Program-made: the position numbers and the translations under genes
Origin: an uncultured bacterium
GTDB taxonomy: Bacteria > Electryoneota > AABM5-125-24 > Hatepunaeales > Hatepunaeaceae
Reading direction: 5' to 3'
Assembly: GCA_964471745.1 (NCBI GenBank)
Contig: CAYYHI010000034.1
Location: forward strand, 1 to 22,257
DNA length: 22,257 nucleotides
In this document: in pieces, positions 2,083 through 19,412 of the stretch
Numbering within the stretch: the stretch's first letter is position 1
Layout of the letters: each line of letters begins with the position of its first letter
The notes under the pieces: generated by a model
Databases searched by the model: none
The model's input: only the letters and a program-made list of their open reading frames with translations
What the model was told of the DNA's origin: nothing

Positions 2083-2269
2083 CAATATTGTTCCATTGTT
2101 TCATTGTTGGATTCCGGATCCCCCTCGTCCGCGAGAGCAGGCTTGTCCGGAATGTCGAATTAAGGAAGAGATTGCTTCGTCACTTCGTTCCTCGCAATGA
2201 CAAATGGATTCCAAATCAAGTTTGGAATGATGAGGAATTGCTGTCGACTGCGGCGAGTCGACAGCGTAG

Positions 2270-2341
2270 TAGCCCGTAGGGGAATCGAACCCCTGTTACC
2301 GGCGTGAGAGGCCGGCGTCCTAACCGCTGAACGAACGGGCC
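2270..2341 (-). tRNA. tRNA-Glu (anticodon CUC)
   Basis: The reverse complement folds as a cloverleaf. Acceptor GGCCCGT/ACGGGCT, D-stem GTTC/GGAC, anticodon stem CCGGC/GCCGG with loop CUCUCAC (U33, CUC, A37), T-arm AGGGG-TTCGATT-CCCCT, discriminator A. No CCA is encoded. Confidence 0.8.
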
Positions 2342-2368: not shown

Positions 2369-3895
2369 TTATTCAAAACCGAGCTCACCGACCGTGTCTT
2401 CAGTTACTTTTACAATAGAGCCATCCCGAACCATAGCCACTATCTTTTCGATATCGGGATAGAGAACCCGGTCATTCTCCAGGAAGGCAACCTGCTCCCG
2501 GATCTTATGATAGGCGATGCGTGTTCCTTTGCCTGGTTGGAGTGGCTTGCGGTAGTCAAACGCCTGAGCGGCTGACATCATCTCTATCGCCAGTACCGCG
2601 CCGACATTGCGCAGGATTTCACCGCACTTGCGCACTGCGATCGGCGTCATAGCCACGTGATCCTCCTGATCGGCGGAAACACTGATAGAATCGACGCACG
2701 CCGGATGAGACAGCACCTTGTTCTCGCTGACCAGCGCCGCCGCAGTGTACTGCGCTACCATAAGTCCCGAATTGAGACCATTACCCTCTACGAGGAAATC
2801 AGGCAGCCCGGATAGATTCTTATTCAGAAGACGGTTGGTATGCCGTTCGGACAGGTTGGCGATTTCGGACATCGCCATTGCCAGGAAGTCCATCCCCAGC
2901 GCGATGTTCTGACTGTGGAAGTTGCCGCCCGCCAGGTAAGCTTCGCCCTCCGTAAAGAACAGCGGATTATCCGCCGATGAGTTCATCTCCGTTTCAACCT
3001 GCTTGCGTACGTACAGCCATGCATCGACCGTCGGACCGTAAACCTGCGGTGTGCAGCGCATCGAATAGCCGTCCTGGACCTTGCCTGAACCGTCGGCGAT
3101 GACTTCGCTGTCAGCCATCAACATCCGCAGATGTTTCGCCACCAGGTTCTGGCCGTGGAACGGGCGCGCTGCGTGCAACCGGGCGTCGTAAGCCGATTGG
3201 ACTCCCTTCAGTGCGTCGATGGTCATAGCTGACGCAATGAACGCGTTTTTAATCAGATTGCGGGCGTCGACCAACTCCAGCGCTGCGCCACCGACGCACA
3301 TCTGACTGCCGTTGATCAGCCCCAAACCTTCCTTGTAGCCGAGGTCGATGATCTTGATGCCGGCTTGCTCCATCGCCTGACCGCCCGGCATCCGCTCGCC
3401 CTTATAGTAAGCTTCGCCTTCGCCTAAGCATACTAAAGCCAACTGCGACATCGGGGACAGATCGCCGGAAACGCCCAAAGAGCCTTTTTCGCAAACTACC
3501 GATGTAACGCCCTTGTTCAGCATATCCACTAAAACCTGCGGAATCTGCAGCCTGACGCCGGAATTGCCGCGGCAAAGCGTGTTCGCGCGCAACAACATCG
3601 CTGCTCGCACATTCTCCTCAGGAAACGGATCACCAGTACCGGCGGCGTGGCTGTAAATAATACGCCGCTGTAGTTCGGAACTCATTTCAGGTGACACGCG
3701 CAAACGTGCCAGTTCGCCAATGCCGGTAGTCACACCATAAATGGCTGTACCCTTGTCAACTAACTTTTGAATCAGCGCAGCAGAAGCGTTGATCCGTTCG
3801 ATTGCTTCCGGTGCGAGTTCAACTTCGGCGCCGTTTCGAGCAACCTGAGCAACCTGGTCTATATTAAGGTTGTTTCCGTTTATTTGTATTTTCAT
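2369..3895 (-). CDS. hutH: Histidine ammonia-lyase (MIO-dependent aromatic amino acid lyase family)
   Basis: Matches HAL across its 508 aa. It has the SGDL active-site region (GSLGVSGDL) and the conserved FHSQNIALGMDFLAMAMSE..SERHTNRLLN..LSGLPDFL block. The ATG is at 3895 and is preceded by an AGGAG RBS. Confidence 0.88.
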   Translation of the reverse strand: MKIQINGNNLNIDQVAQVARNGAEVELAPEAIERINASAALIQKLVDKGTAIYGVTTGIGELARLRVSPEMSSELQRRIIYSHAAGTGDPFPEENVRAAMLLRANTLCRGNSGVRLQIPQVLVDMLNKGVTSVVCEKGSLGVSGDLSPMSQLALVCLGEGEAYYKGERMPGGQAMEQAGIKIIDLGYKEGLGLINGSQMCVGGAALELVDARNLIKNAFIASAMTIDALKGVQSAYDARLHAARPFHGQNLVAKHLRMLMADSEVIADGSGKVQDGYSMRCTPQVYGPTVDAWLYVRKQVETEMNSSADNPLFFTEGEAYLAGGNFHSQNIALGMDFLAMAMSEIANLSERHTNRLLNKNLSGLPDFLVEGNGLNSGLMVAQYTAAALVSENKVLSHPACVDSISVSADQEDHVAMTPIAVRKCGEILRNVGAVLAIEMMSAAQAFDYRKPLQPGKGTRIAYHKIREQVAFLENDRVLYPDIEKIVAMVRDGSIVKVTEDTVGELGFE

Positions 3896-4020
3896 GTTTT
3901 ATGTACTCCTGAGATGCAGTATAGTATAATTTTTATTAGGTTCCCGCCAGATTACGACCGTAACAATACTTTGAAATCCACAAGCCAGGAATCCATCGGT
4001 CTTGAAATCTGGCGGTAACT
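3896..4020 (-). promoter_or_regulatory. hutH 5' leader/promoter region (copy U1). It has a conserved structured element (outer stem CCGCCAGATT...AATCTGGCGG, inner GACCG/CGGTC) and an AGGAG RBS.
   Basis: Inverted repeats lie immediately upstream of the hutH ATG. The whole segment recurs, ~85% identical, at 7467-7600. Confidence 0.4.
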
Positions 4021-4041
4021 AAATAATTGTCTTCCTTTCAT

Positions 4042-4090
4042 AGATTGCTTCACTGACCGCCAGGGTCATTGCGAACGAAGTGAAGCAATC
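4042..4090. terminator. Hairpin (13-bp stem AGATTGCTTCACT/AGTGAAGCAATCT, ~23-nt loop) downstream of MTase-nuclease gene A. Probably a terminator or REP-like element.
   Basis: Inverted repeat read from the sequence. It shares the GAACGAAGTGAAG..AATC core with the 27-bp-stem hairpin at 19222-19306. Confidence 0.45.
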
Positions 4091-4136
4091 TTTAGAGACG
4101 GGTACGGAGCCCAGTCCTCCTGAAGTTGACAGTCCA

Positions 4137-5726
4137 TTAGTCAAATATCTTCTCTTGGTTATCTGATTTATTTACGAATTTGGGAGCTCCCAATAGTCCT
4201 CCTCCAGGAGGAATCTTAAAGCAATCCGGATCACTTAGCAGTTGCGGGATTGTTAAAATCTGCATCCGAGGATAATCCCGGTTCATAACCTCCGAATGAT
4301 AAAATCCGGCTGAGGACGCTTCCGAAATCATCCCCGCAGTTGGCGGTTCGAGAGTTATGAATGCGCTCATTTCAGCCTTTTCCCTCTCCATTACGCCCTT
4401 GAGGTCGCGTATCTGGGATGGGTTCACGGTCCCGGATTTCACTTGAATGATGCATTTGGCGTACGTTCGCCGAGGACCGTGTATAAAACTCCTGTAGCCA
4501 TCGATACCCCGGTCAGCGCCCTTTTTCTTTTCACCCCACGGTCGAGCGTTGATTAACCCCAATGCCCAATATTGGAACTGGTATCGGTTCTCCCTTGCCA
4601 AAGCTCTCGCCTCTTCCACGGTTGTCGGTTCACCGATTACATCGTAGGACTGGCGATCCATACCGAACCTGGAGTATAGCCGGAATTTAATCAGGTCGAT
4701 CGCCAAGTGAGTTACATCGATCCCGATCCATTGACGCGGTGGAAGCTCCGGATTCTCTTTATTAAGAGTCTCAACTGCATCGATTGTTGTGCCGCAGCCG
4801 CAGAAGGGATCGAGGATTATATCACCTGATTTGGATGCCGAATTAACTACCCTGTGTAAGAGCTCCAACGGTTTTTGTGTTTGGTAACCGAGTCTTTCCT
4901 TAGCCTGTGAATTAATAAAATCGATCTCCCAAACGTCGGGCGCAGTAGTTAATCGGGTTTCTGCTTCGACGATCCTTGCATAATCTTTGAGATTTATCCT
5001 TCCCCGCGCTACGGCTTCTTCAACCTTCCCTTTATCATAGATGATTAACTGTGGCTTTCTCACGCCATCAATTGGTACTGTATTTCGATCCCAGCCTCTT
5101 TCGTGCTTCTTAATTTGTCCGGATGTTGGTTTAATATAAGTCCTGTTGATTTGATGTTGCATATCCTTCGCATAAAACAGGATATTATCATGCATCCTTT
5201 GGAAGTGCTTCGATTTTGCAGTCCACCGCCTGTAATACCATATTATATCATTTCGGAATAGCTTCGGTCCAAATATCGCATCCAAGACAAGCTTGAGGTA
5301 ATGACTGGCGGTCGGATCGCAATGCAGATATAACGAACCGGTCGGCTTCAATATCCGGTGCAATTCAACCAGTCTGACAGCCATCTGGACTAAATACGCA
5401 TACATGGGCGAATGACAGAGGAAGCTCTCCAGCATATTTAACAGAGCAACCAACGGCTGTGGTGTATAGTCAATTACGCTGTTTATCTCATATAAAGCCT
5501 TCGCGGCGTTCTCATCCCACCTCCATGTATCCTCAAACGCCTTGATCTGAGCCGATGAGGGTGTTCCTTCCTCGTCCTTAAACAGAACGTTGTAGCTCTG
5601 ATTGGAGTTAAATGGCGGATCAAGGTAGATCAGGTCGACCGATTCCGATGGAAAGAAATCCCTGTCTCTGAGGAATTTGAGGTTATCACCGAAATATAAA
5701 CGATTGGTGGGGATCATACAACACAT
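4137..5726 (-). CDS. Beta-class DNA amino-methyltransferase (N6-A/N4-C; DPPF...FCGCG) fused to a C-terminal Mrr-type PD-(D/E)XK restriction-endonuclease-like domain (paralog A)
   Basis: Motif IV DLIYLDPPF comes before motif I ILDPFCGCGTT, the beta permutation. PTGSLYLHCDP is also present. The C-terminus has YWALGLINARPWG..RGIDGY..CIIQVKSG..IRDLKGVM..AFITLEPPT, matching the Mrr catalytic-domain hallmarks (GIDG, QxK, FxTt). The likely real start is the conserved MIPTNRLYF at 5717. Confidence 0.8.
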   Translation of the reverse strand: MCCMIPTNRLYFGDNLKFLRDRDFFPSESVDLIYLDPPFNSNQSYNVLFKDEEGTPSSAQIKAFEDTWRWDENAAKALYEINSVIDYTPQPLVALLNMLESFLCHSPMYAYLVQMAVRLVELHRILKPTGSLYLHCDPTASHYLKLVLDAIFGPKLFRNDIIWYYRRWTAKSKHFQRMHDNILFYAKDMQHQINRTYIKPTSGQIKKHERGWDRNTVPIDGVRKPQLIIYDKGKVEEAVARGRINLKDYARIVEAETRLTTAPDVWEIDFINSQAKERLGYQTQKPLELLHRVVNSASKSGDIILDPFCGCGTTIDAVETLNKENPELPPRQWIGIDVTHLAIDLIKFRLYSRFGMDRQSYDVIGEPTTVEEARALARENRYQFQYWALGLINARPWGEKKKGADRGIDGYRSFIHGPRRTYAKCIIQVKSGTVNPSQIRDLKGVMEREKAEMSAFITLEPPTAGMISEASSAGFYHSEVMNRDYPRMQILTIPQLLSDPDCFKIPPGGGLLGAPKFVNKSDNQEKIFD

Positions 5727-5744
5727 CCAATTGGACTCAGCATT

Positions 5745-5815
5745 TCAAACCTTTAGCGCCGTACTGAGCAACCTGGTCTATATTAAGATTGTTATCGTTT
5801 ATTTGTGTTTTCAAT
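5745..5815 (-). repeat. Degenerate copy of the hutH 5' coding end (the ATG has decayed to ATTG). It forms a short uORF-like leader directly upstream of MTase-nuclease A.
   Basis: The reverse complement reads (L)KTQINDNNLNIDQVAQ..., versus hutH MKIQINGNNLNIDQVAQVA. The conserved junction CCAATTGGACT(C/T)AGCATTTCAAACCTT(T/C)AGCGCCGT precedes both MTase genes. Confidence 0.7.
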
Positions 5816-5841
5816 GAATATCTCCAGAGAAACTAATTATT

Positions 5842-7380
5842 TCAATCAAACATCTTATTTTGAGAATCATCCCGCTTCTTAAATTTTGGTGCCGAGGCTA
5901 ATTGTCCACCTGGAGGAATCTTAAAAATATCCGGATCCTTAAATAATTCTTTGATTGTTAGTATCTGCAAACGCGGATAATCCTTGTTCATCACCTCGGA
6001 ATGATAAAACCCAGTTGCAGCAGACTCCGTTATCATCTCTTTAGTTGGCTTCTCAAGAGTAATGAAAACACCAAGTTTTGCATTTACTCTTTCCATAGTC
6101 CCTTTTAAATCCCTTATCATACTGGGATTAACTTTACCAGATTTTACCTGAACTATACATTTTTCGTATTTTCGCTTGGCACCGTGTAGGAAGTATCTAT
6201 ATCCATCTATTCCTCTATCGGGTTTTCCCCACGGACGTGCCCCAATTAAACCGAGAGCCCAATATTCGAATTGTTTACGATTCTCAAGCGCCAAGGCTTT
6301 AGCTTCCTCTAAGGTAGTTGGTTCCCCTATAACATCATAATAGTTTCTATCGATACCGAATCGTGTCATAAGACGGTTCTTCATAAGATCAATCGCCAGA
6401 TGTGTGATGTCGATGCCGATCCACTTGCGAGGCGGTTTGTCGGGAGTTTCCTGATTTAATGTCTCTACAGCGTCAATTGTCGTTCCGCATCCGCAGAAGG
6501 GATCAAGGATCATATCGCCGGGATTTGAGCCGATAGTTATTATCCTTCTTAGAAGTCGAACAGGTTTTTGGGTATCATAACCCAATGATTCTTTTTCACC
6601 ACTGGTGAGTTTTTCAATATTGAATAAATCATCCAACGGACGCCCGTATGCCATTGCGTCTTCAATATAGCGTTTGATTCTCTTTCCCTTTCCAGCATCG
6701 GAAAGAACGTATTCCCTTCCATCTTTATCTACATGGATTTTTTGCTTCCTAACTTTTATATATTCCTCCTTTGATTCCCATTCGGCTGTCGGGTAGTTAA
6801 AGGTAAATCTCAATTTCTTTCTATATAGAAATATAGTATCATGTCGGGATTCAATCCTGGATTTCAGCTTTTTATTCCATCCTGAATAATGCCAAACTAT
6901 ATCATTTCTGAAATTCTTCGGTCCGAAAATGCCATCTAATAATAATTTTAAATAGTGACTCGCCGTCGGATCGCAGTGCAGGAATAGCGAGCCAGTAGGC
7001 TTCAGAATCCTATGCATCTCGACCAATCTCACCCCCATCTGCACCAGGTAAGCATACATCGGTGAATGTTTCAGGAATTCTTCCAGCATATTGATCAAAG
7101 CGACAAGCGGTTGGGGAGTGTAGTCAATAACCGTATTCATTTCATGCAGCGCTTTTGCAGCAGATTCATCCCAGCGCCACGTGTCCTCGAAAGCCTTAAC
7201 CTGTGCCGTTGAGGGCGTCCCCTCAGCTTCTTTGTACAGAACGTTATAGCTCTGATTGGAATTGAACGGCGGATCAAGGTAGATCAGGTCGACCGATTCC
7301 GATGGGAAGAAATCCCTGTCCCTGAGGAATTTAAGGTTGTCACCGAAATATAGGCGGTTGGTGGGGATCATATACAACAT
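5842..7380 (-). CDS. Beta-class DNA amino-methyltransferase fused to a C-terminal Mrr-type nuclease domain (paralog B; the central target-recognition region differs from A)
   Basis: Has the same motifs as paralog A (DLIYLDPPF, ILDPFCGCGTT, DRGIDGY, CIVQVKSG, VFITLEKPT). The N-terminal ~160 aa and the C-terminal nuclease domain are highly similar to A. The region between motif IV and motif I is strongly diverged. Confidence 0.8.
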   Translation of the reverse strand: MLYMIPTNRLYFGDNLKFLRDRDFFPSESVDLIYLDPPFNSNQSYNVLYKEAEGTPSTAQVKAFEDTWRWDESAAKALHEMNTVIDYTPQPLVALINMLEEFLKHSPMYAYLVQMGVRLVEMHRILKPTGSLFLHCDPTASHYLKLLLDGIFGPKNFRNDIVWHYSGWNKKLKSRIESRHDTIFLYRKKLRFTFNYPTAEWESKEEYIKVRKQKIHVDKDGREYVLSDAGKGKRIKRYIEDAMAYGRPLDDLFNIEKLTSGEKESLGYDTQKPVRLLRRIITIGSNPGDMILDPFCGCGTTIDAVETLNQETPDKPPRKWIGIDITHLAIDLMKNRLMTRFGIDRNYYDVIGEPTTLEEAKALALENRKQFEYWALGLIGARPWGKPDRGIDGYRYFLHGAKRKYEKCIVQVKSGKVNPSMIRDLKGTMERVNAKLGVFITLEKPTKEMITESAATGFYHSEVMNKDYPRLQILTIKELFKDPDIFKIPPGGQLASAPKFKKRDDSQNKMFD

Positions 7381-7399
7381 CCAATTGGACTTAGCATTT

Positions 7400-7600
7400 C
7401 AAACCTTCAGCGCCGTGCAGGCAACTTGGTCTATGTTAAGGTTGTTTCCGTTTATTTGTGTTTTCATGTTTTATATACTTCTTAGATGCAGTATAACATA
7501 TTTTTTATTAGGTTCCCGCCAGATTACGACCGCGCTAATACTTTGAAATCCACAAGCCAGAAATCCATCGGTCTTGAAATCTGGCGGGAACTAAAAATGT
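7400..7600 (-). repeat. Second copy of the hutH 5' coding end (7400-7466; intact uORF MKTQINGNNLNIDQVACTALKV*) plus the hutH leader/promoter (U2, 7467-7600), upstream of MTase-nuclease B.
   Basis: Direct comparison with 3815-4020 gives ~85-90% identity. The uORF stops 19 nt before the MTase B ATG. Confidence 0.75.
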
Positions 7601-7610
7601 ACAGGACCTC

Positions 7611-7690
7611 ATCATTCCATCGAAAGATGGAATCCAGTAACGTACGTAATATCAGCAACTTCTCTGGATTCCAACTTCCGTTGGAATGAT
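7611..7690. terminator. Paired related hairpins (ATTCCATC-GAAA-GATGGAAT and ATTCCAAC-TTCC-GTTGGAAT) with an alternative central pairing (GGAATCCAG...CTGGATTCC). This is the likely terminator region after the aminotransferase-fusion gene.
   Basis: Inverted repeats read from the sequence. The region lies between the fusion-gene stop (7747) and U2. Confidence 0.4.
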
Positions 7691-7746
7691 GAATCCCGAG
7701 ACGATTAGGTATTTTCGGACACACTGTTTCGCGGGAATGACAGTGG

Positions 7747-10086
7747 TTACTTATTTATTATCTCCCAGATCCTTTCCTTCGCTTCAGCGAGCTCCATACT
7801 CTCGGTGTTGACGATATAAAGCGGAACAGCATCCAGCAGTCTATTCCACTGGCGGCGCAGCAGATCCATGCGCGCGGCGTCGCTAACCAGGAGATACGGA
7901 TTGTAGAACGGAACCGAGAACCACCGTCCGTGCGACATCGAATAACCGCCCTCTTCGATTATGCGCAGCGCGGCGTCAGTTGACGGTTTGTCTACCTTCG
8001 GCGCCATGGTGTCCCTCTTCAGCAGGATTATGGAGCTTAGCAGCGTCCGCTTGATATGCCTGGCTGAACCGCCGATCCAGTATGGGTCGAGTATGGCGAA
8101 TGAATTGCGCGATCCCTCATAGCAGCAGGCTGCGCCCTGTTCGAGTGGGCATTCGCTGCTGACCAGATGCTTTTCTGCCTGGCAATCGTCCGACTTCGTG
8201 ACGACGTTCTCCAGCTTGGATCGGTCGAATAAGGGCATCAACTCCGGAAGCTTTCCTGCCAGGTTGGTATGTATCAGGAACTTACGCTCAACCGAATCGG
8301 CGATCGGCGAACCTCCAGCCTGACGGACGAAGAACCCGTCGTAGCTGTGCAATCGGGCTTCCTGACGGCGCATCAGACCGGCGAAATGAGTCGAACCACC
8401 TGTCCCCGGCGGCGCAATCAGGGCAACGCCCCGACCGTTGACATCAAAGCACGAGCCGACAACAAGGTGCATGTCGAACGTGCGCGAGGCGATGTCATCG
8501 ACAATACCCAACGTCATGGCACGCAACTGCGGATAGAAGGCGGTGTTGAACGTCAAACCGGTACGTGTCTGAGAGTTATAGAAAACGCGCGCTTCCCGTC
8601 CCGGCGCATCCTTGACACCGTACAGCAAACCGTGAGGTTCGAGATCCGACTCGATTGGCGATGGATACCAGTTCTCCGTCCAGAAGTCGATGAGATGCGG
8701 TGAGTTCGTCATCATCTTCACTACAACACCGCCGATGTTGGCGCACCATTCGTGATAGCGGTCGTATGTCATTGCTGCTTCAGCCTCAGAAACGAGCGCG
8801 TCGCGCATCTCTATTTCGATAGCTGTTTCCAGTTCGGAATAATCCTTGATCTTGGTCACTGTGTTGTTTAACGCCCGCCGCTTGGCTTTGGTAGTCGGTT
8901 TCAGCCATGCCAGCGCCTCGGTTACCCTGTCCAGCGCAATAGCCAGATTCTCCTGCGATGTCGCATACGAGAAGCGGATGAAATTGTCCGCACCGAACGC
9001 ATCACCGGGTACGAGCGCTACGTGGGCGTGCTTCAGAAGGTAGTATGCCAGTCCGCTGGAATTGCGTATCGGTACGCCTTCGAACTGCTTGTCGTAGTAC
9101 CACGAGAAATTCGGGAAGGCATAGAACGCGCCCTCAGGCTTGTTGCAGGATACGTGCGGCATGCCGTTCAGCTTATAGATCACGAAGTTACGCCGTGCTT
9201 CGAACTCCTGGCGCATCCGAACGATTTCGTGCTGCGGTCCGGTCAGCGCTTCCACGCCCGCCCACTGCGCGACCGAATTGGGATTGGAGGTGGCGTGCGA
9301 CTGTACCTTGGACATGCCCTGAATCAGTTCCAGAGGTCCCACTGCATAGCCGAGTCGCCAGCCGGTCATCGCGTAGGATTTCGAGAAGCCGCAGACAATG
9401 ATCGACTTGCTTCTGACCTTCTCGCCAAATGCAGCGACCGATTTCATCTCGAATCCGTCGTAAACGAGCTTTTCGTAAATCTCATCGGCGATGATAAACA
9501 AGCCTTCATCCATACAGACGTCGATAAGCTTCAGCAACTGATCCGGGTTATAGGCAGCGCCGGTGGGGTTGCACGGGTTGTTGAGGATAATGGCTTTGGT
9601 TCGGGCAGATAAGGCACGTCCCAGGTCTTCGGTTGTCAGCCGGAAACCGTTTTCCTCGCGTGTATTGACGTAGATCGGCACTCCCTTGGCGAGGTTCACC
9701 ATGTGCGGATATGACACCCAGTATGGCACCGGCACAATGACCTCGTCGCCCTTGTTCAGCAACGCGGTGCAGGCGTTGAACAGGCACTGCTTGCCACCCG
9801 TAGAGACGATCACCTCGCCCGGTTTGTAATCTGCACTGCATTCATCGCTGTACTTGCGGGCGATGGCTTCGCGCAGCTCCAGAATGCCGGTGTTGTCGGT
9901 GTATTTCGTATAGTTCTTGTCGAGAGCCGCTTTCGCCGCGTTCTTAATGTTCTCCGGCGTGGGAAAATCAGGCTCACCGACGGAAAGGTTTATGACATCG
10001 ATCCCTTCGCGCCGCATCTGCTGCGCCTTGGAGCTGATGCGCAAGGTCGACGAAAAGCCTATGCGTTGTACTCGGTCTGATAACAT
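7747..10086 (-). CDS. Fusion protein: N-terminal aspartate/aromatic aminotransferase (PLP fold type I), joined to a C-terminal ~380-aa extension containing an HprK-C/PEPCK-like domain with a degenerate P-loop.
   Basis: AspAT hallmarks are present in the first ~400 aa: SVGEPDF, NNPCNPTG, the PLP-lysine block FSKSYAMTGWRLGY, and RFSYA. The C-terminal part has GRGVALIAPPGTGGSTHFAGLMRRQEARLHSYDGFFV. This resembles the HPr-kinase C-domain G-x-GVLI-G-SG-GKSE..L...G..LV-DD but lacks the Walker-A Lys. It is one uninterrupted 779-codon frame. Confidence 0.7.
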   Translation of the reverse strand: MLSDRVQRIGFSSTLRISSKAQQMRREGIDVINLSVGEPDFPTPENIKNAAKAALDKNYTKYTDNTGILELREAIARKYSDECSADYKPGEVIVSTGGKQCLFNACTALLNKGDEVIVPVPYWVSYPHMVNLAKGVPIYVNTREENGFRLTTEDLGRALSARTKAIILNNPCNPTGAAYNPDQLLKLIDVCMDEGLFIIADEIYEKLVYDGFEMKSVAAFGEKVRSKSIIVCGFSKSYAMTGWRLGYAVGPLELIQGMSKVQSHATSNPNSVAQWAGVEALTGPQHEIVRMRQEFEARRNFVIYKLNGMPHVSCNKPEGAFYAFPNFSWYYDKQFEGVPIRNSSGLAYYLLKHAHVALVPGDAFGADNFIRFSYATSQENLAIALDRVTEALAWLKPTTKAKRRALNNTVTKIKDYSELETAIEIEMRDALVSEAEAAMTYDRYHEWCANIGGVVVKMMTNSPHLIDFWTENWYPSPIESDLEPHGLLYGVKDAPGREARVFYNSQTRTGLTFNTAFYPQLRAMTLGIVDDIASRTFDMHLVVGSCFDVNGRGVALIAPPGTGGSTHFAGLMRRQEARLHSYDGFFVRQAGGSPIADSVERKFLIHTNLAGKLPELMPLFDRSKLENVVTKSDDCQAEKHLVSSECPLEQGAACCYEGSRNSFAILDPYWIGGSARHIKRTLLSSIILLKRDTMAPKVDKPSTDAALRIIEEGGYSMSHGRWFSVPFYNPYLLVSDAARMDLLRRQWNRLLDAVPLYIVNTESMELAEAKERIWEIINK

Positions 10087-10352: not shown

Positions 10353-10733
10353 TCAATCCATCCAATATTCGGTGACTATCTTATCCAACTTTTCGCGCAG
10401 TAAGGGAACATCATCGGTAATGGTTGTCCAGACCCGGTTCAAATCAATCCTGTAGTAGGCATGTATCAGGCGGTTGCGCATCCCGATGATGTCCTCCCAT
10501 GGAATGTCGGAGAATTCACGCCGGACTTCGGGCGAGACCTTGGAAGCTGCCTCACCGATCAACTCAATGGCTTTCACAACCCCAAGCTCCAACAGGCGAT
10601 CTTTATCCAAATCCCGGCGCGTCTTGCTTTGAGTGAACTGTTCCACATCCCTCGCGGCATCCAGCATGTGCCGCAGCCGGATGAAGTCATCCTTGTGCAT
10701 ACTGCACCTGCGCCGATGAAATAACATCATCAC
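10353..10733 (-). CDS. hepT: HepT-family HEPN toxin (DUF86) of a MntA/HepT type VII toxin-antitoxin pair
   Basis: Carries the R-x4-HxY motif (MRNRLIHAY). The likely start is the internal Met at 10700, which gives a 14-nt overlap with mntA. Confidence 0.8.
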
Positions 10734-10986
10734 GGAAATATGGACTTAGGTCGTCCGGTGTCCGAAGGTCAACCTTGCGCCCAAGTATCGCCGACAGTTC
10801 CCGCTCCATTGCCGCCATCCGGAGAAGTCCCACTACCGCTTCGGGTTCAAACTCCACCAGCACGTCAATATCGGAGTCCGGGTGGAATTCCTCCCGAAGC
10901 ACCGACCCGAAGAGTGCCAGTCGTCGGATGCGATGCTTGACGCAGAAGGACTTGATCGCGCGTTTGTCTATGTTGAGCTTGCCCAT
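10687..10986 (-). CDS. mntA: MntA-family minimal nucleotidyltransferase antitoxin
   Basis: Contains [24 protein letters not shown] (GS..R...x..SDxD). It is ~99 aa and sits immediately upstream of hepT. Confidence 0.8.
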
Positions 10987-11003
10987 TTTACTTTATGTTT
11001 GTA

Positions 11004-11130
11004 TCACAACTTCTCGCGCGACGCCGAGTCTAAGAGCGCCAGGCGTTTGACCTTGAGCTCTTTTAACTTGTCGTGGTTTTTGGTTAGAAGTTGTAAAATA
11101 TCTTCACGAGTCAAAACATTTCTCCCTAAA
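11004..11130 (-). pseudogene. Second MntA-like N-terminal remnant (...LTREDILQLLTKNHDKLKELKVKRLALLDSASREKL*)
   Basis: Shares an exact 34-nt stretch (GCCAGGCGTTTGACCTTGAGCTCTTTTAACTTGT, encoding KLKELKVKRLAL) with the fragment at 10184-10345. The GS motif is lost and a stop follows. Its start is unclear. Confidence 0.4.
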
Positions 11131-11132
11131 AG

Positions 11133-11714
11133 TTAATAGACAATATCTTCAAAATTTATTCCATCTCCTCTAAATTTTTCAATTATTTTGTCATAGGAAA
11201 ATTTCAGGCTTCCAGGCCATAACAAAGGAGCATTTACACTCCCTATTGGTCCCCAGCTCCAACCTCCAGAAGTAAACCCCCCTTGTAAGTAAAGAAATTC
11301 GTGAATTAGATCTCCATCAAAAACGTTATCTTTATCGTTAAAGGATTTCTTAAAACTATCAGCGTCCTCTAGACTTAAATCTACATAAAGGGTTCTAAGA
11401 GATAACATAATCGGTGTCCATCCAGGCCTGGAGTCGCCCCAGACATCCTCTATGCGATAGAGGGAAACGTTCCTTTCCACTTTAGGTTTTAAGTCAACAA
11501 TTAGAGCACTATTTTCTACTGATTGTCCAAGTATCAATAAAATATTTTGCTCGGATAAGTGCCATTTTATACCAGAATCTTTAGGTGCTAGTCCCAAACT
11601 TTGAACATAAGTTGCTATAGGACCTTTTCTGCCAGCAAGTGAGACTTTTTTCAAATAGCTGTAGGTTGATAATTCGCCAGCTTTTTGTTTAACATTGTAA
11701 ATTATGAAAGGCAT
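11133..11714 (-). CDS. Hypothetical protein (193 aa), in an AT-rich segment
   Basis: A long ORF on the same strand as the toxin-antitoxin array, with a plausible SD (AGGAGGTAAAC) upstream of the ATG. There are no recognisable motifs. GC is markedly lower than in flanking genes. Confidence 0.5.
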   Translation of the reverse strand: MPFIIYNVKQKAGELSTYSYLKKVSLAGRKGPIATYVQSLGLAPKDSGIKWHLSEQNILLILGQSVENSALIVDLKPKVERNVSLYRIEDVWGDSRPGWTPIMLSLRTLYVDLSLEDADSFKKSFNDKDNVFDGDLIHEFLYLQGGFTSGGWSWGPIGSVNAPLLWPGSLKFSYDKIIEKFRGDGINFEDIVY

Positions 11715-11764
11715 GTTTACCTCCTCTTAATTGGCATTTGGTAAATTATGCGTTTATTTATAGT

Positions 11765-11826
11765 ACCCTCACCCCATTCTTGACCACCCATCCCGCGAAG
11801 CTGGCGGGGCTGGGGTTGTGGGGGGC
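11765..11826. repeat. Imperfect-palindromic C/G-rich REP-like element (copy 1)
   Basis: ACCCTCACCCCATTCTTGACCACCCATCCCGCGAAGCTGGCGGGGCTGGGGTTGTGGGGGG. It is closely related to 12432-12486. Confidence 0.6.
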
Positions 11827-11875
11827 TCATAGAAGGGTACAGTGCCACGCCCTCATTCCTTAACCCAACTATTCC

Positions 11876-12100
11876 TCATGCAGTAGCTATTCTTTCCAAC
11901 GTAACTTCCTCAAACGCCTGAATAATCAGTTGGCGTATGTCGGTTTTTTCAGATGCGTCAAGAATTTCGATTGCAACCACATTACCATCATGGTCATAAT
12001 CGACGATCATGTCCTGGTTGATTTCGTCTGAGTTGCCGATCTCGGTCTCCCTCAAACGAATATACAGCGCATCCGCTTCTTTCGAATAACGAATTCTCAT
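11876..12100 (-). CDS. DUF2283-family protein (putative antitoxin partner of DUF4258)
   Basis: YSKEADALYIRL signature (YDxEaDaLYI). 74 aa. Lies 2 nt downstream of the DUF4258 gene. Confidence 0.65.
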   Translation of the reverse strand: MRIRYSKEADALYIRLRETEIGNSDEINQDMIVDYDHDGNVVAIEILDASEKTDIRQLIIQAFEEVTLERIATA

Positions 12101-12102
12101 TT

Positions 12103-12348
12103 TTATTTTCCTTTCAAGTACTTCCAGATCCTATTAGTGGGATAGACAGTGATCAGTTTCTTATTTTCTGTGACTAAGCGTATCAATTTATTACCAATCA
12201 GTTTCTGGTAAATGAGGCGGTTCCTTTTACCGATTACAATATCATCGGGATTCACAAGAACATCATGAATTAACTCACGTGGTATCTTTCTCTCTTTCAA
12301 TTGTTGAACAATATGATCCGTCCAAATCCATTCTTTCAGCTTTTTCAT
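12103..12348 (-). CDS. DUF4258-family protein (putative toxin)
   Basis: TDHIVQQLKERKIPRELIHDVL and ...KLITVY match the DUF4258 pattern. 81 aa. Confidence 0.6.
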   Translation of the reverse strand: MKKLKEWIWTDHIVQQLKERKIPRELIHDVLVNPDDIVIGKRNRLIYQKLIGNKLIRLVTENKKLITVYPTNRIWKYLKGK

Positions 12349-12424
12349 TTAAGATCCAACGAAAATTGCCTGAAGAAGCCAATTTATATGAAATTAGACA
12401 GATACGGAGCCCCGTCCTCCTGTT

Positions 12425-12748
12425 TTAAGCAACCCTCACCCCATTCCTCACCACCCATCCGGCAAAACATGCGGGGCTGGGATTGGGCAGTTCAGCAGCG
12501 TCAAAGAAGTGGAGGTCAATGTCGTCGCCCTCTGCTTCCTTAACCCGGCAGCTTGTTTTCACCTGTTTCATCAGCGTCCATTTACTGAAGTTATCTACAA
12601 AAAGAGCGATGTCCAGATCGCTGTATTCGTCTGAACTACCATCCACTTGCGACCCGAAAATATAAACGGCATTGATATTGGTCTTGCTGCCAAGTAGTTT
12701 AATTACTTGGTTTACCCGCAATGTCAGTAAAGATTTGTCAACAACCAT
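12425..12748 (-). CDS. Minimal nucleotidyltransferase (MNT) of a HEPN/MNT pair
   Basis: YIFGSQVDGSSDEYSDLDIALFV. The 3' end of the ORF runs into REP-like repeat copy 2. Confidence 0.75.
   Translation of the reverse strand: MVVDKSLLTLRVNQVIKLLGSKTNINAVYIFGSQVDGSSDEYSDLDIALFVDNFSKWTLMKQVKTSCRVKEAEGDDIDLHFFDAAELPNPSPACFAGWVVRNGVRVA
12432..12486. repeat. REP-like palindromic element (copy 2)
   Basis: ACCCTCACCCCATTCCTCACCACCCATCCGGCAAAACATGCGGGGCTGGGATTGG. It is preceded by TACGGAGCCCCGTCCTCCTG, which also occurs at 4103-4122. Confidence 0.6.
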
Positions 12749-12832
12749 CCGTATAACTCCTTGGTTGCTTTCAAGTATTTTTCAGTGGTTTGTCTGGTCA
12801 GCTTCAAATCAATCTGAAGCGGATACCTGGTT

Positions 12833-13114
12833 CTAACATAGATAATCGGATAGTTCCCGCAGGAGGGAGACCTGAGTAGCTTCCAAGTCAAGCCCAGCTT
12901 TCTCGATTAATGTCACGAGATTGTGAATACGTGGCGCAAGCTCCCCACTATCCTTTATAATTAAGGCTTTAATGAGTTTCTCCAGTGCCTGTTGACAGCA
13001 GAACAAGACATAGAGGTAGCGTCTTGCAACTTGCATAGCTTCTGCAGTCTTCAAGTCATATTCGGCTTTCTCAAGCCATCGTTTGACTTCCTTACTGTCC
13101 AATCCTGCCTGCAT
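12833..13114 (-). CDS. HEPN-domain protein (partner of the downstream MNT)
   Basis: QQALEKLIKALIIK...RIHNLVTL, the HEPN QAvEKalKA / HdL pattern. The start is chosen at the Met at 13114, 2 nt after the stop of the upstream OMP-like gene. Confidence 0.75.
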   Translation of the reverse strand: MQAGLDSKEVKRWLEKAEYDLKTAEAMQVARRYLYVLFCCQQALEKLIKALIIKDSGELAPRIHNLVTLIEKAGLDLEATQVSLLRELSDYLC

Positions 13115-13116
13115 TC

Positions 13117-13722
13117 TTAAAACCTCACACCAACGATGAGTGGCACCGTGATGGGCATCGTGGCTGACCCGAAAGGCGAAACACGCCAATTAATCTCCGC
13201 GAAAAACGCCAGATTGTCGCTGATTTCCAGATCGGCGCCGAAACCCATTCCAAATGAGGCACCATTCGGTACGCCAATCCCACAAAAGAACTTAAATACG
13301 GGCATGAAGGGTGTCCTTCGAAGTCCACCGTAGTCGCTGAAGCGCAAGGTGACATCGAGCCCTGCTTCATGATAGTAAACGTCAGGCTCAGATTTGTAAC
13401 CGACCATGCACGGCACAACATAAGGAGGGCAGGGATTAGCTTCACGGTTGTTTAGTCTGTATCCATCGGGCACAATGACCAGACGAGGCTCCACTGCCAG
13501 AGCTAAGGTATTCTTTATTACACTACCAAAACCAGCCGAGAACAGGTAACCTTTGGTTGCATAATCATCGTCACCATCACGGGAATGTGGATAAACAACC
13601 ACACCGCTGTTTACCATCCGGAATGACTGGGCTTCCGTAAGTTCAGGGATCGTGGATAATAGACATACCAGTAGCAATAACTTGAGCGATTGAAACAATC
13701 GAAATCTCATATTGCGAGACAT
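13117..13722 (-). CDS. Putative small outer-membrane beta-barrel protein (signal peptide, alternating amphipathic strands, C-terminal ...VRF)
   Basis: N-terminal signal (LKLLLLVCLLSTIPELTEA). Ends in an aromatic residue (F), as typical for OMPs. No specific family was recognised. Confidence 0.4.
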   Translation of the reverse strand: MSRNMRFRLFQSLKLLLLVCLLSTIPELTEAQSFRMVNSGVVVYPHSRDGDDDYATKGYLFSAGFGSVIKNTLALAVEPRLVIVPDGYRLNNREANPCPPYVVPCMVGYKSEPDVYYHEAGLDVTLRFSDYGGLRRTPFMPVFKFFCGIGVPNGASFGMGFGADLEISDNLAFFAEINWRVSPFGSATMPITVPLIVGVRF

Positions 13723-13729
13723 CAGAAAG

Positions 13730-13942
13730 TTATTTCACTGAATCCCACTCAGTTTCTGAAATTCCAGCTACTTTTAGGATTCGCTTAAGTAAACCTATAG
13801 AAATATCCTTGCTGTGCGGATTTGTGATGCTGATATAGAGTTCGCCTCTTCTCATATGAGGATGCTTTCCACCTGGTCTTGGTCCTTCAAATCCCAAAGC
13901 CCTTAAACGTCTTATCAGTTCCCGTCTCGAAACAGGCTTCAC
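13730..13942 (-). CDS. hicA: HicA mRNA-interferase toxin
   Basis: RELIRRLRALGF...GGKHPHM...NPHSKDISIGLLKRILKVAGI matches HicA (YcfA-like). 70 aa. Confidence 0.8.
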   Translation of the reverse strand: MKPVSRRELIRRLRALGFEGPRPGGKHPHMRRGELYISITNPHSKDISIGLLKRILKVAGISETEWDSVK

Positions 13943-14202
13943 TTAAAATCAGCAACAGTTTTGGGATTTTCTGCAACCGTTATACCATCGATTTCAGGCA
14001 CGGGAACATTGTCACGAATGTGAGCCCATATCCAGTCTTCGATGACTTCTGCGAGCGTACCCCGACACTCTTCCAAAGTCCTTCCCTCCGACCACACACC
14101 TTTGAGCCCCGGGACTGAACCAAAATAAAGGTCATCCTCGTCGATAAACTCATAATGTGCTTTACGCAGTGCGGCTTGAATATATTCTATGATCATCAGC
14201 AA
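13939..14202 (-). CDS. hicB: HicB antitoxin
   Basis: YFGSVPGLKGVWSEGRTLEEC (UPF0150/HicB N-domain pattern). 4-nt overlap with hicA. Confidence 0.72.
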   Translation of the reverse strand: MLMIIEYIQAALRKAHYEFIDEDDLYFGSVPGLKGVWSEGRTLEECRGTLAEVIEDWIWAHIRDNVPVPEIDGITVAENPKTVADFK

Positions 14203-19118: not shown

Positions 19119-19221
19119 GAAAGCGATCTCGTCAGCGGTCGGTGAAGTAATGACAATTAGTTAAGTTGACAGTCCACAAGATAACCATAGATATTTTGAG
19201 AGCATTAACAAAATACTGATT

Positions 19222-19306
19222 CCAATACGTTGTCATTCTGAACGAAGTGAAGAATCTCGTTTTCATTCCCCCGCTGTTTGAGATTCTTCACTTCGTTCAG
19301 AATGAC
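19222..19306. terminator. Long perfect hairpin (27-bp stem GTCATTCTGAACGAAGTGAAGAATCTC, 31-nt loop) between the convergent usp and peptidase genes. It is a bidirectional terminator or REP/MITE-like element.
   Basis: Inverted repeat read from the sequence. It is related to the 4042-4090 hairpin. GTTGACAGTCCA (19165-19176) nearby also occurs at 4125-4136. Confidence 0.6.
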
Positions 19307-19412
19307 GAAATGTGAACTTGCTCACGACATCAGTAATCAGTTAAGACTCTCGATATTTTTAATCCTGTTATAACATTTCATTGCCATCTAATATTCACCA
19401 CCCTGATCAAAT

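Follow-up and report, generated by a model that had tools for sequence, protein, structure and literature searches.

A putative restriction-modification gene array between repeated copies of the hutH start in an uncultured bacterium

We analysed a stretch of 22,257 nucleotides (nt) from an uncultured Electryoneota bacterium (the window; the complete contig CAYYHI010000034.1, assembly GCA_964471745.1), in which two genes for DNA methylase-nuclease fusion proteins, Methylase-A and Methylase-B, lie between an aminotransferase-fusion gene and hutH, the gene for histidine ammonia-lyase. Each of the two genes is preceded by a partial copy of the hutH start. Comparison with related loci, labelled L001, L082, L083 and so on, indicates that the aminotransferase-hutH interval has long been a variable island, or old insertion hot spot, in this clade. 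The explanation that we favour, with moderate confidence, combines "insertion with long target duplication" with repeat-mediated amplification and shuffling of restriction-modification (R-M) genes, driven by homologous recombination. Judged by hutH, the nearest named relatives are Ca. Hatepunaea meridiana and a Calditrichaeota AABM5.125.24 metagenome-assembled genome (MAG).

Repeated modules and cargo genes of the array

In the direction of transcription, the locus is made up of the aminotransferase gene, a spacer, U2, stubB, J_B, Methylase-B, a spacer, stubA, J_A, Methylase-A, a spacer, U1 and hutH (Table 1). U1 and U2 are two copies of a leader block, stubA and stubB are copies of the hutH start, and J_A and J_B are the junctions leading to the methylase start codons. 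A repeat search returned a direct repeat of 175 nt (3849-4023 and 7421-7595, 91% identity) that brackets the whole block, with about 3.4 kb between the outer repeats. This repeat consists of the leader block U and 47 nt of hutH, and it spans the hutH start codon. A shorter family of 50 nt covers the hutH start in three copies, at 3845-3894, 5764-5813 (92%) and 7417-7466 (86%), the respective start positions being 3895 (hutH itself), 5814 (stubA) and 7467 (stubB). Counted position by position, stubB agrees with hutH at 44/47 positions, stubA with hutH at 46/50, and stubA with stubB at 41/50. Furthermore, the junction together with the 5' end of the methylase gene (5575-5763 and 7229-7417) is identical at 169 of 189 positions. 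The blastn E-values are 3.6e-42 for U1 against U2 and 6.5e-13 for the junction. An initial annotation of this DNA, made from its letters and a list of open reading frames (ORFs), had described a triplicated hutH start with one copy before each methylase-nuclease gene, a recurring leader block and a junction common to both genes; all three are borne out by these comparisons.

The homology of the stubs to hutH extends to about +80, less 9 nt that correspond to one deleted CAGGTTGCT unit. The deletion is common to stubA, stubB and the stub of L082, and it is seen in no hutH allele. The same is true of GGTTTGAAATGC, which is located at the end of the hutH homology (about +80) in all three stubs. 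Because of the shared deletion and the shared GGTTTGAAATGC junction, we regard these stubs as copies of one ancestral stub and not as independent captures, which is at odds with the serial captures proposed initially.

StubA is nearer to hutH (92%) than stubB is (86%). It had been described as a degraded copy with a decayed ATG, but it starts with TTG and forms an open ORF of 25 codons that is open in L082 as well. TTG is the start codon of hutH itself in L001 and L083. The 5' untranslated region (UTR) of stubA, consisting of GGAG, 7 nt and TTG, resembles the hutH 5' UTR of L086, L168 and L001, and the arrangement of this spacer is identical in L082. The 5' UTR type of U1 and U2 differs from that of the relatives' hutH. 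Since its TTG start and 5' UTR match the type found before hutH in relatives, stubA is probably the original hutH start of the window lineage, and the U1-type hutH 5' end is probably a replacement. The data fit the earlier suggestion of a replacement hutH 5' end that entered, together with U1, on incoming DNA. They do not fit the suggestion that U2 and stubB represent the ancestral hutH start, given the relative-type 5' UTR and TTG of stubA and an L082 locus without U2 and stubB.

At gathering and E-value thresholds, no Rfam family was found for U or the hairpins; weak matches of miRNA models, confined to the long hairpin, are meaningless. The U2 hairpin folds with a z-score of -4.4. A sigma-70 consensus promoter scan returned nothing in U, and the total of promoter and terminator matches was below the shuffle expectation. 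Searches with U, the hairpin spacers and the junction in 81 loci (L001-L081) gave chance-level matches only, so that U can be called neither native nor mobile. Two candidate sources of the junction found no support, namely an origin from the compact aminotransferase-methylase spacer of relatives, as predicted by tandem duplication (p = 0.93), and a continuation of hutH past +80 (p = 0.35).

Methylase-A and Methylase-B (the latter with 512 amino acids, aa) each carry an N6_N4_Mtase domain and an Mrr_cat nuclease domain in Pfam. In beta-class methylases, the target-recognition domain is located between motif IV and motif I. The fusion proteins show this beta-class order, with DPPF (IV) before FCGCGT (I), and the segment between these two motifs was taken as the recognition domain. 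The two proteins are 64% identical overall and 17% identical in this domain. Among methylases of solved structure, the nearest are Type III Mod subunits, CcrM and MboIIA. A comparison of 22 homologues, with identities down to 47%, shows no change in the nuclease motif residues D..D-G and V-K-S-G, and the methylase family is large, with significant matches for at least 8000 candidates (all scored ones). We regard the proteins as putative single-chain R-M enzymes whose build is not that of Type IIG, and they probably differ in specificity. The G+C content at third codon positions is 0.43 in Methylase-B, 0.51 in Methylase-A and 0.64-0.70 in hutH and the aminotransferase gene; the base composition of the methylase genes is foreign.

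At the same locus, Methylase-A is 91% identical in amino acids to the single gene of L083, 80% to that of L168 and 77% to that of L001. The nearest relatives of Methylase-B by gene body are found in other genomic contexts, and its recognition domain also groups with genes from other contexts. Between types A, B and L001, recognition-domain identity is 17-29%. More specifically, the L001 methylase (L001 1359-2873, compared with window 4137-5717) has A-type ends with 90% and 82% nt identity and, between them, a third, unrelated recognition domain (24-29% identity). It plainly shows one recognition domain replaced by another at a single locus.

The identity between the A and B units is mosaic. 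It amounts to 83-93% in the stub, the junction and the first ~145 nt of the methylase gene, then falls to 63-78%, and further along it is 30-45% in the middle and recognition domain, with 55-70% for the 3' part. When all genes of types A and B in the clade are compared, their first 144 nt show 89-97% identity; over the 366 nt that follow, A and B agree at only 70%. We read this mosaic as a sign of repeated homologous exchange or gene conversion affecting the 5' modules.

As noted initially, stubB encodes an intact upstream ORF (uORF) of 22 codons, MKTQINGNNLNIDQVACTALKV (7467-7399). Its stop precedes the ATG at 7380 by 18 nt and the conserved start at 7371 by 27 nt. All four stubs retain the start codon of hutH and an open frame, each with a preceding ribosome-binding sequence, and in all of them 9-27 nt separate the end of the frame from the cargo start codon. 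The uORF peptide is not conserved: the two stubA copies differ by five amino acids, and the frame of stubB is shifted. A stop within ~25 codons is the chance expectation. Translational coupling from stub to cargo is possible but unsupported by these features. For annotation, the short hutH-like ORFs should be treated as insertion relics and not as genes.

The aminotransferase-hutH interval in related genomes

In a broad range of genomes, the aminotransferase gene adjoins hutH. Distant relatives (hutH 70-73% identical in amino acids) have a gap of only 25-220 nt between the two genes, which represents an empty site, as seen in L094-L096, L098, L011-L013, L017, L019 and others. The spacers of these empty sites do not align with U, and the hutH part of the repeat is single-copy there.

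A compact haplotype with one methylase gene and no stub is found in L001, L083, L085 and L171. In L001 (88-90% nt identity to the window), L083 (76-85%) and L171, a 31-nt spacer is followed by one A-type methylase gene, and neither U nor a stub is present in these three loci. A TTG-start hutH follows after a short spacer in L001 (33 nt) and L083; the L171 sequence ends inside the methylase gene. In L085 (Ca. Hatepunaea), the methylase gene abuts hutH, and in L086 and L168 it is accompanied by toxin-antitoxin genes or small-molecule methyltransferase genes.

The closest relative, L082, is 94% identical to the window and carries two genes, in the order aminotransferase gene, 31-nt spacer, Methylase-B, stubA, junction and Methylase-A. 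Since L082 comes from an independent (ENA) assembly, it confirms the inner B-stubA-A tandem. The 31-nt spacer of L001, L082, L083 and L171 is positioned 3' of the aminotransferase gene, where the window has the 7600-7746 spacer. Between haplotypes, the methylase homology starts 0-3 nt before the ATG and ends at the stop codon in the loci where the 3' end is present (L001 and L083).

The compact spacer (L001 1328-1358, L082 76-106, L083 4051-4081) contains ATCGAATGGATAAA, which matches ATCGAACGGATCAA of hutH (+97 to +110, window 3786-3799) at 12/14 positions (p about 0.01). This match may be a relic of an older stub, or chance. In Zixibacteria MAGs (L093 8440-9624, L092 534-1736), a gene of ~400 aa with AAA_16/ATPase_2 domains occupies the interval, which therefore varies in other phyla too.

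A second case of a hutH-start stub is provided by L087, from MAG bin.11 of another species (hutH 82% identical in amino acids). Its interval contains, in order, a HicB-like gene, a UDG-family gene, the stub, a 217-aa ORF of unknown family, a gene for a 296-aa N6_N4 methylase and, 22 nt on, hutH. A direct repeat of 56 nt (8300-8355 and 10001-10056, 95% identical) brackets exactly the two-gene unit, an R+M pair that differs from the window genes. The next 17 nt of the stub agree in register with the window-type hutH allele at 13/17 positions and with L087's own hutH at 6/17, which is at most suggestive of a crossover inside the stub, the stub having arrived with its cargo from a donor of a different hutH allele. 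A search of 126 hutH loci found no hutH-start stubs further to that of L087. Beyond the hutH-derived part, the window and L087 junctions show no significant similarity (p about 0.14), and the right-hand boundaries are unrelated. L087 also has, near the start of the UDG-family gene within its cargo region, a perfect 28-nt direct repeat (7048-7075 and 7381-7408).

Feature table, hairpin repeats and neighbouring regions

Table 1. Features of the hutH locus in window coordinates.
Feature	Coordinates	Strand	Evidence or remark
Aminotransferase-fusion gene, left flank, 779 aa	7747..10086	minus	Pfam Aminotran_1_2; C-terminal domain of unknown function
Hairpin-rich spacer 3' of aminotransferase gene	7600..7746	minus	Inverted repeat I1, 29-nt arms, long hairpin 7609-7692
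U2, upstream copy of hutH leader block, contains long hairpin	7468..7595	minus	116/128 identical to U1
stubB, copy of hutH +1 to ~+80, ATG start	7390..7467	minus	Repeat search and alignment
Junction J_B, stub to methylase start codon	7372..7414	minus	94.7% identical over 38 nt to J_A
Methylase-B, N6_N4 DNA methylase and Mrr-like nuclease fusion	5842..7371	minus	Pfam; conserved start 7371, upstream ATG 7380
Spacer with relative-type hutH ribosome-binding site (GGAG, 7 nt, TTG)	5815..5841 (27 nt)	minus	Alignment with L086, L168, L001
stubA, copy of hutH +1 to ~+80, TTG start	5737..5814	minus	Repeat search and alignment
Junction J_A	5718..5760	minus	Sequence comparison with J_B
Methylase-A, resident type of methylase-nuclease fusion	4137..5717	minus	Pfam; conserved start 5717, upstream ATG 5726
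Spacer with repeat-family hairpin 4042-4090	4030..4136	minus	Repeat and folding analysis
U1, leader block before intact hutH	3896..4023	minus	Repeat match to U2
hutH, histidine ammonia-lyase, intact; first ~80 nt are the source of the stubs	2369..3895	minus	Pfam Lyase_aromatic, E = 3e-179
tRNA-Glu, 3' of hutH	2269..2341	minus	

An intergenic hairpin repeat family with a GTCATTGCGAACGAAGTGAAGCAATC-like core is present at 2170-2240, 4042-4090, 7600-7746 and 19228-19310. The hairpin repeats resemble repetitive extragenic palindromic (REP) elements, and several intergenic regions are marked by them, among these the two spacers of the island. The hairpin of the 7600-7746 spacer has a folding energy of -57.3 kcal/mol (z = -6.4). 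The 4042-4090 hairpin, initially taken as the end of a methylase operon, has no T-run and is not called as an intrinsic terminator; it is a member of the repeat family, which is also represented at 2170-2200 and 19237-19305. In addition, the short motifs TACGGAGCCC.GTCCTCCT and AAGTTGACAGTCCA recur among intergenic regions (also at 12403-12422 and 19163-19176).

Beyond the tRNA-Glu gene lie a Vsr gene (1237-1650) and a C5 cytosine methylase gene (150-1244), both of low GC (~40%), with the end of the contig at position 1. The match between L001 and the window extends no further than 2088, after which L001 has other genes. The 150-2341 region looks like a second variable R-M-related island beside a tRNA gene. 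The region 10353-14202 is densely occupied by toxin-antitoxin-like modules, namely HepT-like, DUF4258/DUF2283, HEPN with a Pol-beta nucleotidyltransferase, and HicA/HicB. A HEPN/nucleotidyltransferase pair is also found upstream of the aminotransferase gene in L083. The aminotransferase itself has a C-terminal domain of ~390 aa with no Pfam match. The fused aminotransferase is kept beside hutH, often 25-60 nt apart, in very different MAGs (Zixibacteria, Calditrichota-like and others; L017, L019, L035, L093-L098), and this conserved neighbourhood suggests that the two genes form an operon with a role in histidine or amino-acid catabolism.

Origin of the array and comparison with known systems

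In the mechanism that we favour, methylase DNA carrying a hutH 5' fragment would recombine homologously with the resident hutH start, either by a single crossover of a circle or by a double crossover of a linear fragment. Integration by this route would duplicate the hutH start and leave hutH intact. The repeated modules, comprising the stub, the junction with the first 144 nt of the methylase gene, and U, would then allow unequal recombination and gene conversion, through which units could be added, removed and re-sorted. Haplotypes with 0, 1 and 2 genes would be accounted for by these processes, as would the mosaic identity and the divergence between repeats, one being a donor and the other a recipient copy. 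The divergence of U1 and U2 had been used initially as an argument against duplication by unequal crossover, but it does not speak against recombination and would follow from a donor-strain origin of one copy. The retained hutH ribosome-binding site and start codon, with translation stopping 9-27 nt before the cargo start, may help cargo expression.

Several observations weigh against this mechanism. The empty site that the initial annotation expected in related genomes exists in distant relatives, but there is none among the close relatives compared. Close relatives have the same methylase gene in place without any duplication, the outer U2/stubB repeat is found in the window contig only, and the compact stub-less arrangement looks ancestral for the clade by parsimony. 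The mechanism does not account for the junction of ~35 nt, which resembles neither the compact spacer nor hutH significantly. Lastly, the mosaic of L087 rests on 17 nt, and an unanchored shuffle test of it is not significant (p = 0.17).

A purely intragenomic origin, in which a compact aminotransferase-methylase-hutH operon was duplicated in tandem by unequal or illegitimate crossover and then diverged slowly with no horizontal input, appears unlikely, although it has several points in its favour. The compact operon is widespread in relatives, the units are spaced at 1653-1654 nt, and Methylase-B is followed by a short spacer and the TTG of stubA, much like the methylase-hutH spacing in L001. 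Such a duplication would require the junction before Methylase-A to match the 31-nt compact spacer, which it does not. Furthermore, A and B have recognition domains with no relation to each other (17%), that of B groups with genes in other contexts, the third-position GC content of Methylase-B is lower than that of A, and the 5' UTR type of U1 and U2 is unlike that of the relatives.

The hutH 5' stub could also be a portable homology arm, that is, a recombinase-free "attachment site" travelling with R-M cargo. If this were true, cassettes would loop out, cross species and re-integrate at hutH by RecA-type recombination to give integron-like arrays, and the hutH-derived uORF would tie cargo translation to the histidine-utilisation signals of the host. 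We consider this quite improbable.

The initial annotation had proposed serial, site-specific insertion at the hutH start. Of this proposal, a recurrent landing place at which the hutH start is duplicated stands, as indicated by the empty sites and L087; for the site-specific mechanism there is no evidence, and the window holds no recombinase. In that mechanism, a recombinase encoded elsewhere would act once per cassette at a fixed site near hutH +80. The stubs before two different cargos (window/L082 and L087) do end at a similar hutH coordinate, ~+75 to +85, and both window cassettes have the same junction. However, Pfam scans of the larger ORFs of the window found no integrase or transposase, as stated initially, and no site-specific recombinase was found adjoining the array in the 22-kb contig or around the locus in L001, L083 and L087. 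The window and L087 junctions are without significant shared sequence, the derived 9-nt deletion identifies stubA and stubB as copies of one stub, a stub-less methylase gene occupies the same locus in L001, L083 and L171, and the repeat lengths vary widely (175, ~105 and 56 nt). Taken together, we regard site-specific capture as very unlikely.

A metagenome assembly chimera that joined the haplotypes of co-existing strains through the repeats is highly improbable: the window is a MAG contig, its U2/stubB arrangement is seen nowhere else, and an independent Logan contig with 100% identity to window 10298-7713 breaks at 7713, at the hairpin repeats, but the longest exact repeats in the array are only 24-38 nt, below usual assembly k-mer sizes, the ENA assembly contains the inner tandem, and U2 and stubB carry their own substitutions and hence exist in reads. 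A stretch identical to window sequence is contained in Logan run SRR9705735.

Insertion of R-M genes with long target duplication has been described by Nobusato et al. (2000, Gene 259:99) and Furuta et al. (2010, NAR 38:2428, PMC2853133). The latter used as criteria R and M homologues, an insert of <20 kb with no linked mobility genes, flanking direct repeats of >30 bp, and an empty site in a related genome. The published repeats are 46 to 423 bp long with ~93-100% identity, often span the start or stop of a neighbouring gene while leaving that gene intact, and have been proposed to allow amplification and release (PMC2853133). Three of the four features are found in the window, namely predicted R and M domains, a ~3.4-kb insert without a mobility gene, and 175-nt repeats; an empty site is found only in distant relatives, where U cannot be aligned. 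The likeness extends to the repeats that bracket the R-M genes (175 nt, 91% in the window; 56 nt, 95% in L087), to a repeat spanning the start codon of neighbouring hutH, which stays intact, to the foreign base composition, and to allelic recognition-domain diversity at one locus. In contrast to the published cases, the window has no close relative with an empty site, its close relatives have the same gene in the same place with no duplication, and its array consists of two diverged single-chain genes with an internal third repeat. The host is also different, being an uncultured FCB-group lineage and not Helicobacter, Haemophilus or Neisseria, in which this route has so far mainly been described. 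On the reading that we favour, the range of long target duplication without a mobility gene would come to include an uncultured phylum-level lineage and another enzyme build.

That R-M units can be amplified by way of long direct repeats at their flanks is known from experiments to which Furuta et al. 2010 refer (reference 84 therein; PMC2853133). The window likewise has tandem units separated by one repeat copy, and the copy number is polymorphic among strains (0, 1 or 2 genes), but its units agree at only 64% in protein and their recognition domains are unrelated. For this reason the tandem is not a recent self-amplification, and one unit has been replaced or imported. Near-identical units, the mark of recent tandem amplification, are not found; only the stub, the junction and the first 145 nt reach 83-93% identity.

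Integron cassette arrays resemble the window in having serial promoterless cassettes past a fixed point, each after a recurring short element. Here, however, the window contains neither an integrase nor an attC-type imperfect inverted repeat, and the recurring element is a piece of a host gene. A conserved recombination core is not found at the boundaries of the different cargos of the window and L087.

Recognition-domain swapping is known as variation between alleles in a Type IIG gene's target-recognition domain (Furuta et al. 2010, PMC2853133) and as domain movement (PMC3077401, PMC3467074). The A, B and L001 proteins share with these cases conserved N- and C-terminal parts that flank unrelated recognition domains at one locus. 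They differ in build. Type IIG enzymes have an N-terminal nuclease followed by a gamma-class methylase, whereas the window enzymes combine an N-terminal beta-class methylase with a C-terminal Mrr-like nuclease; with the order reversed and the methylase of the beta class, they fall outside Type IIG. As a whole, the array belongs to a known kind of R-M gene mobility, with site-specific serial capture only partly supported, and its natural haplotype series (0, 1 and 2 genes, three recognition domains and a second cargo) could help to work out the mechanism.

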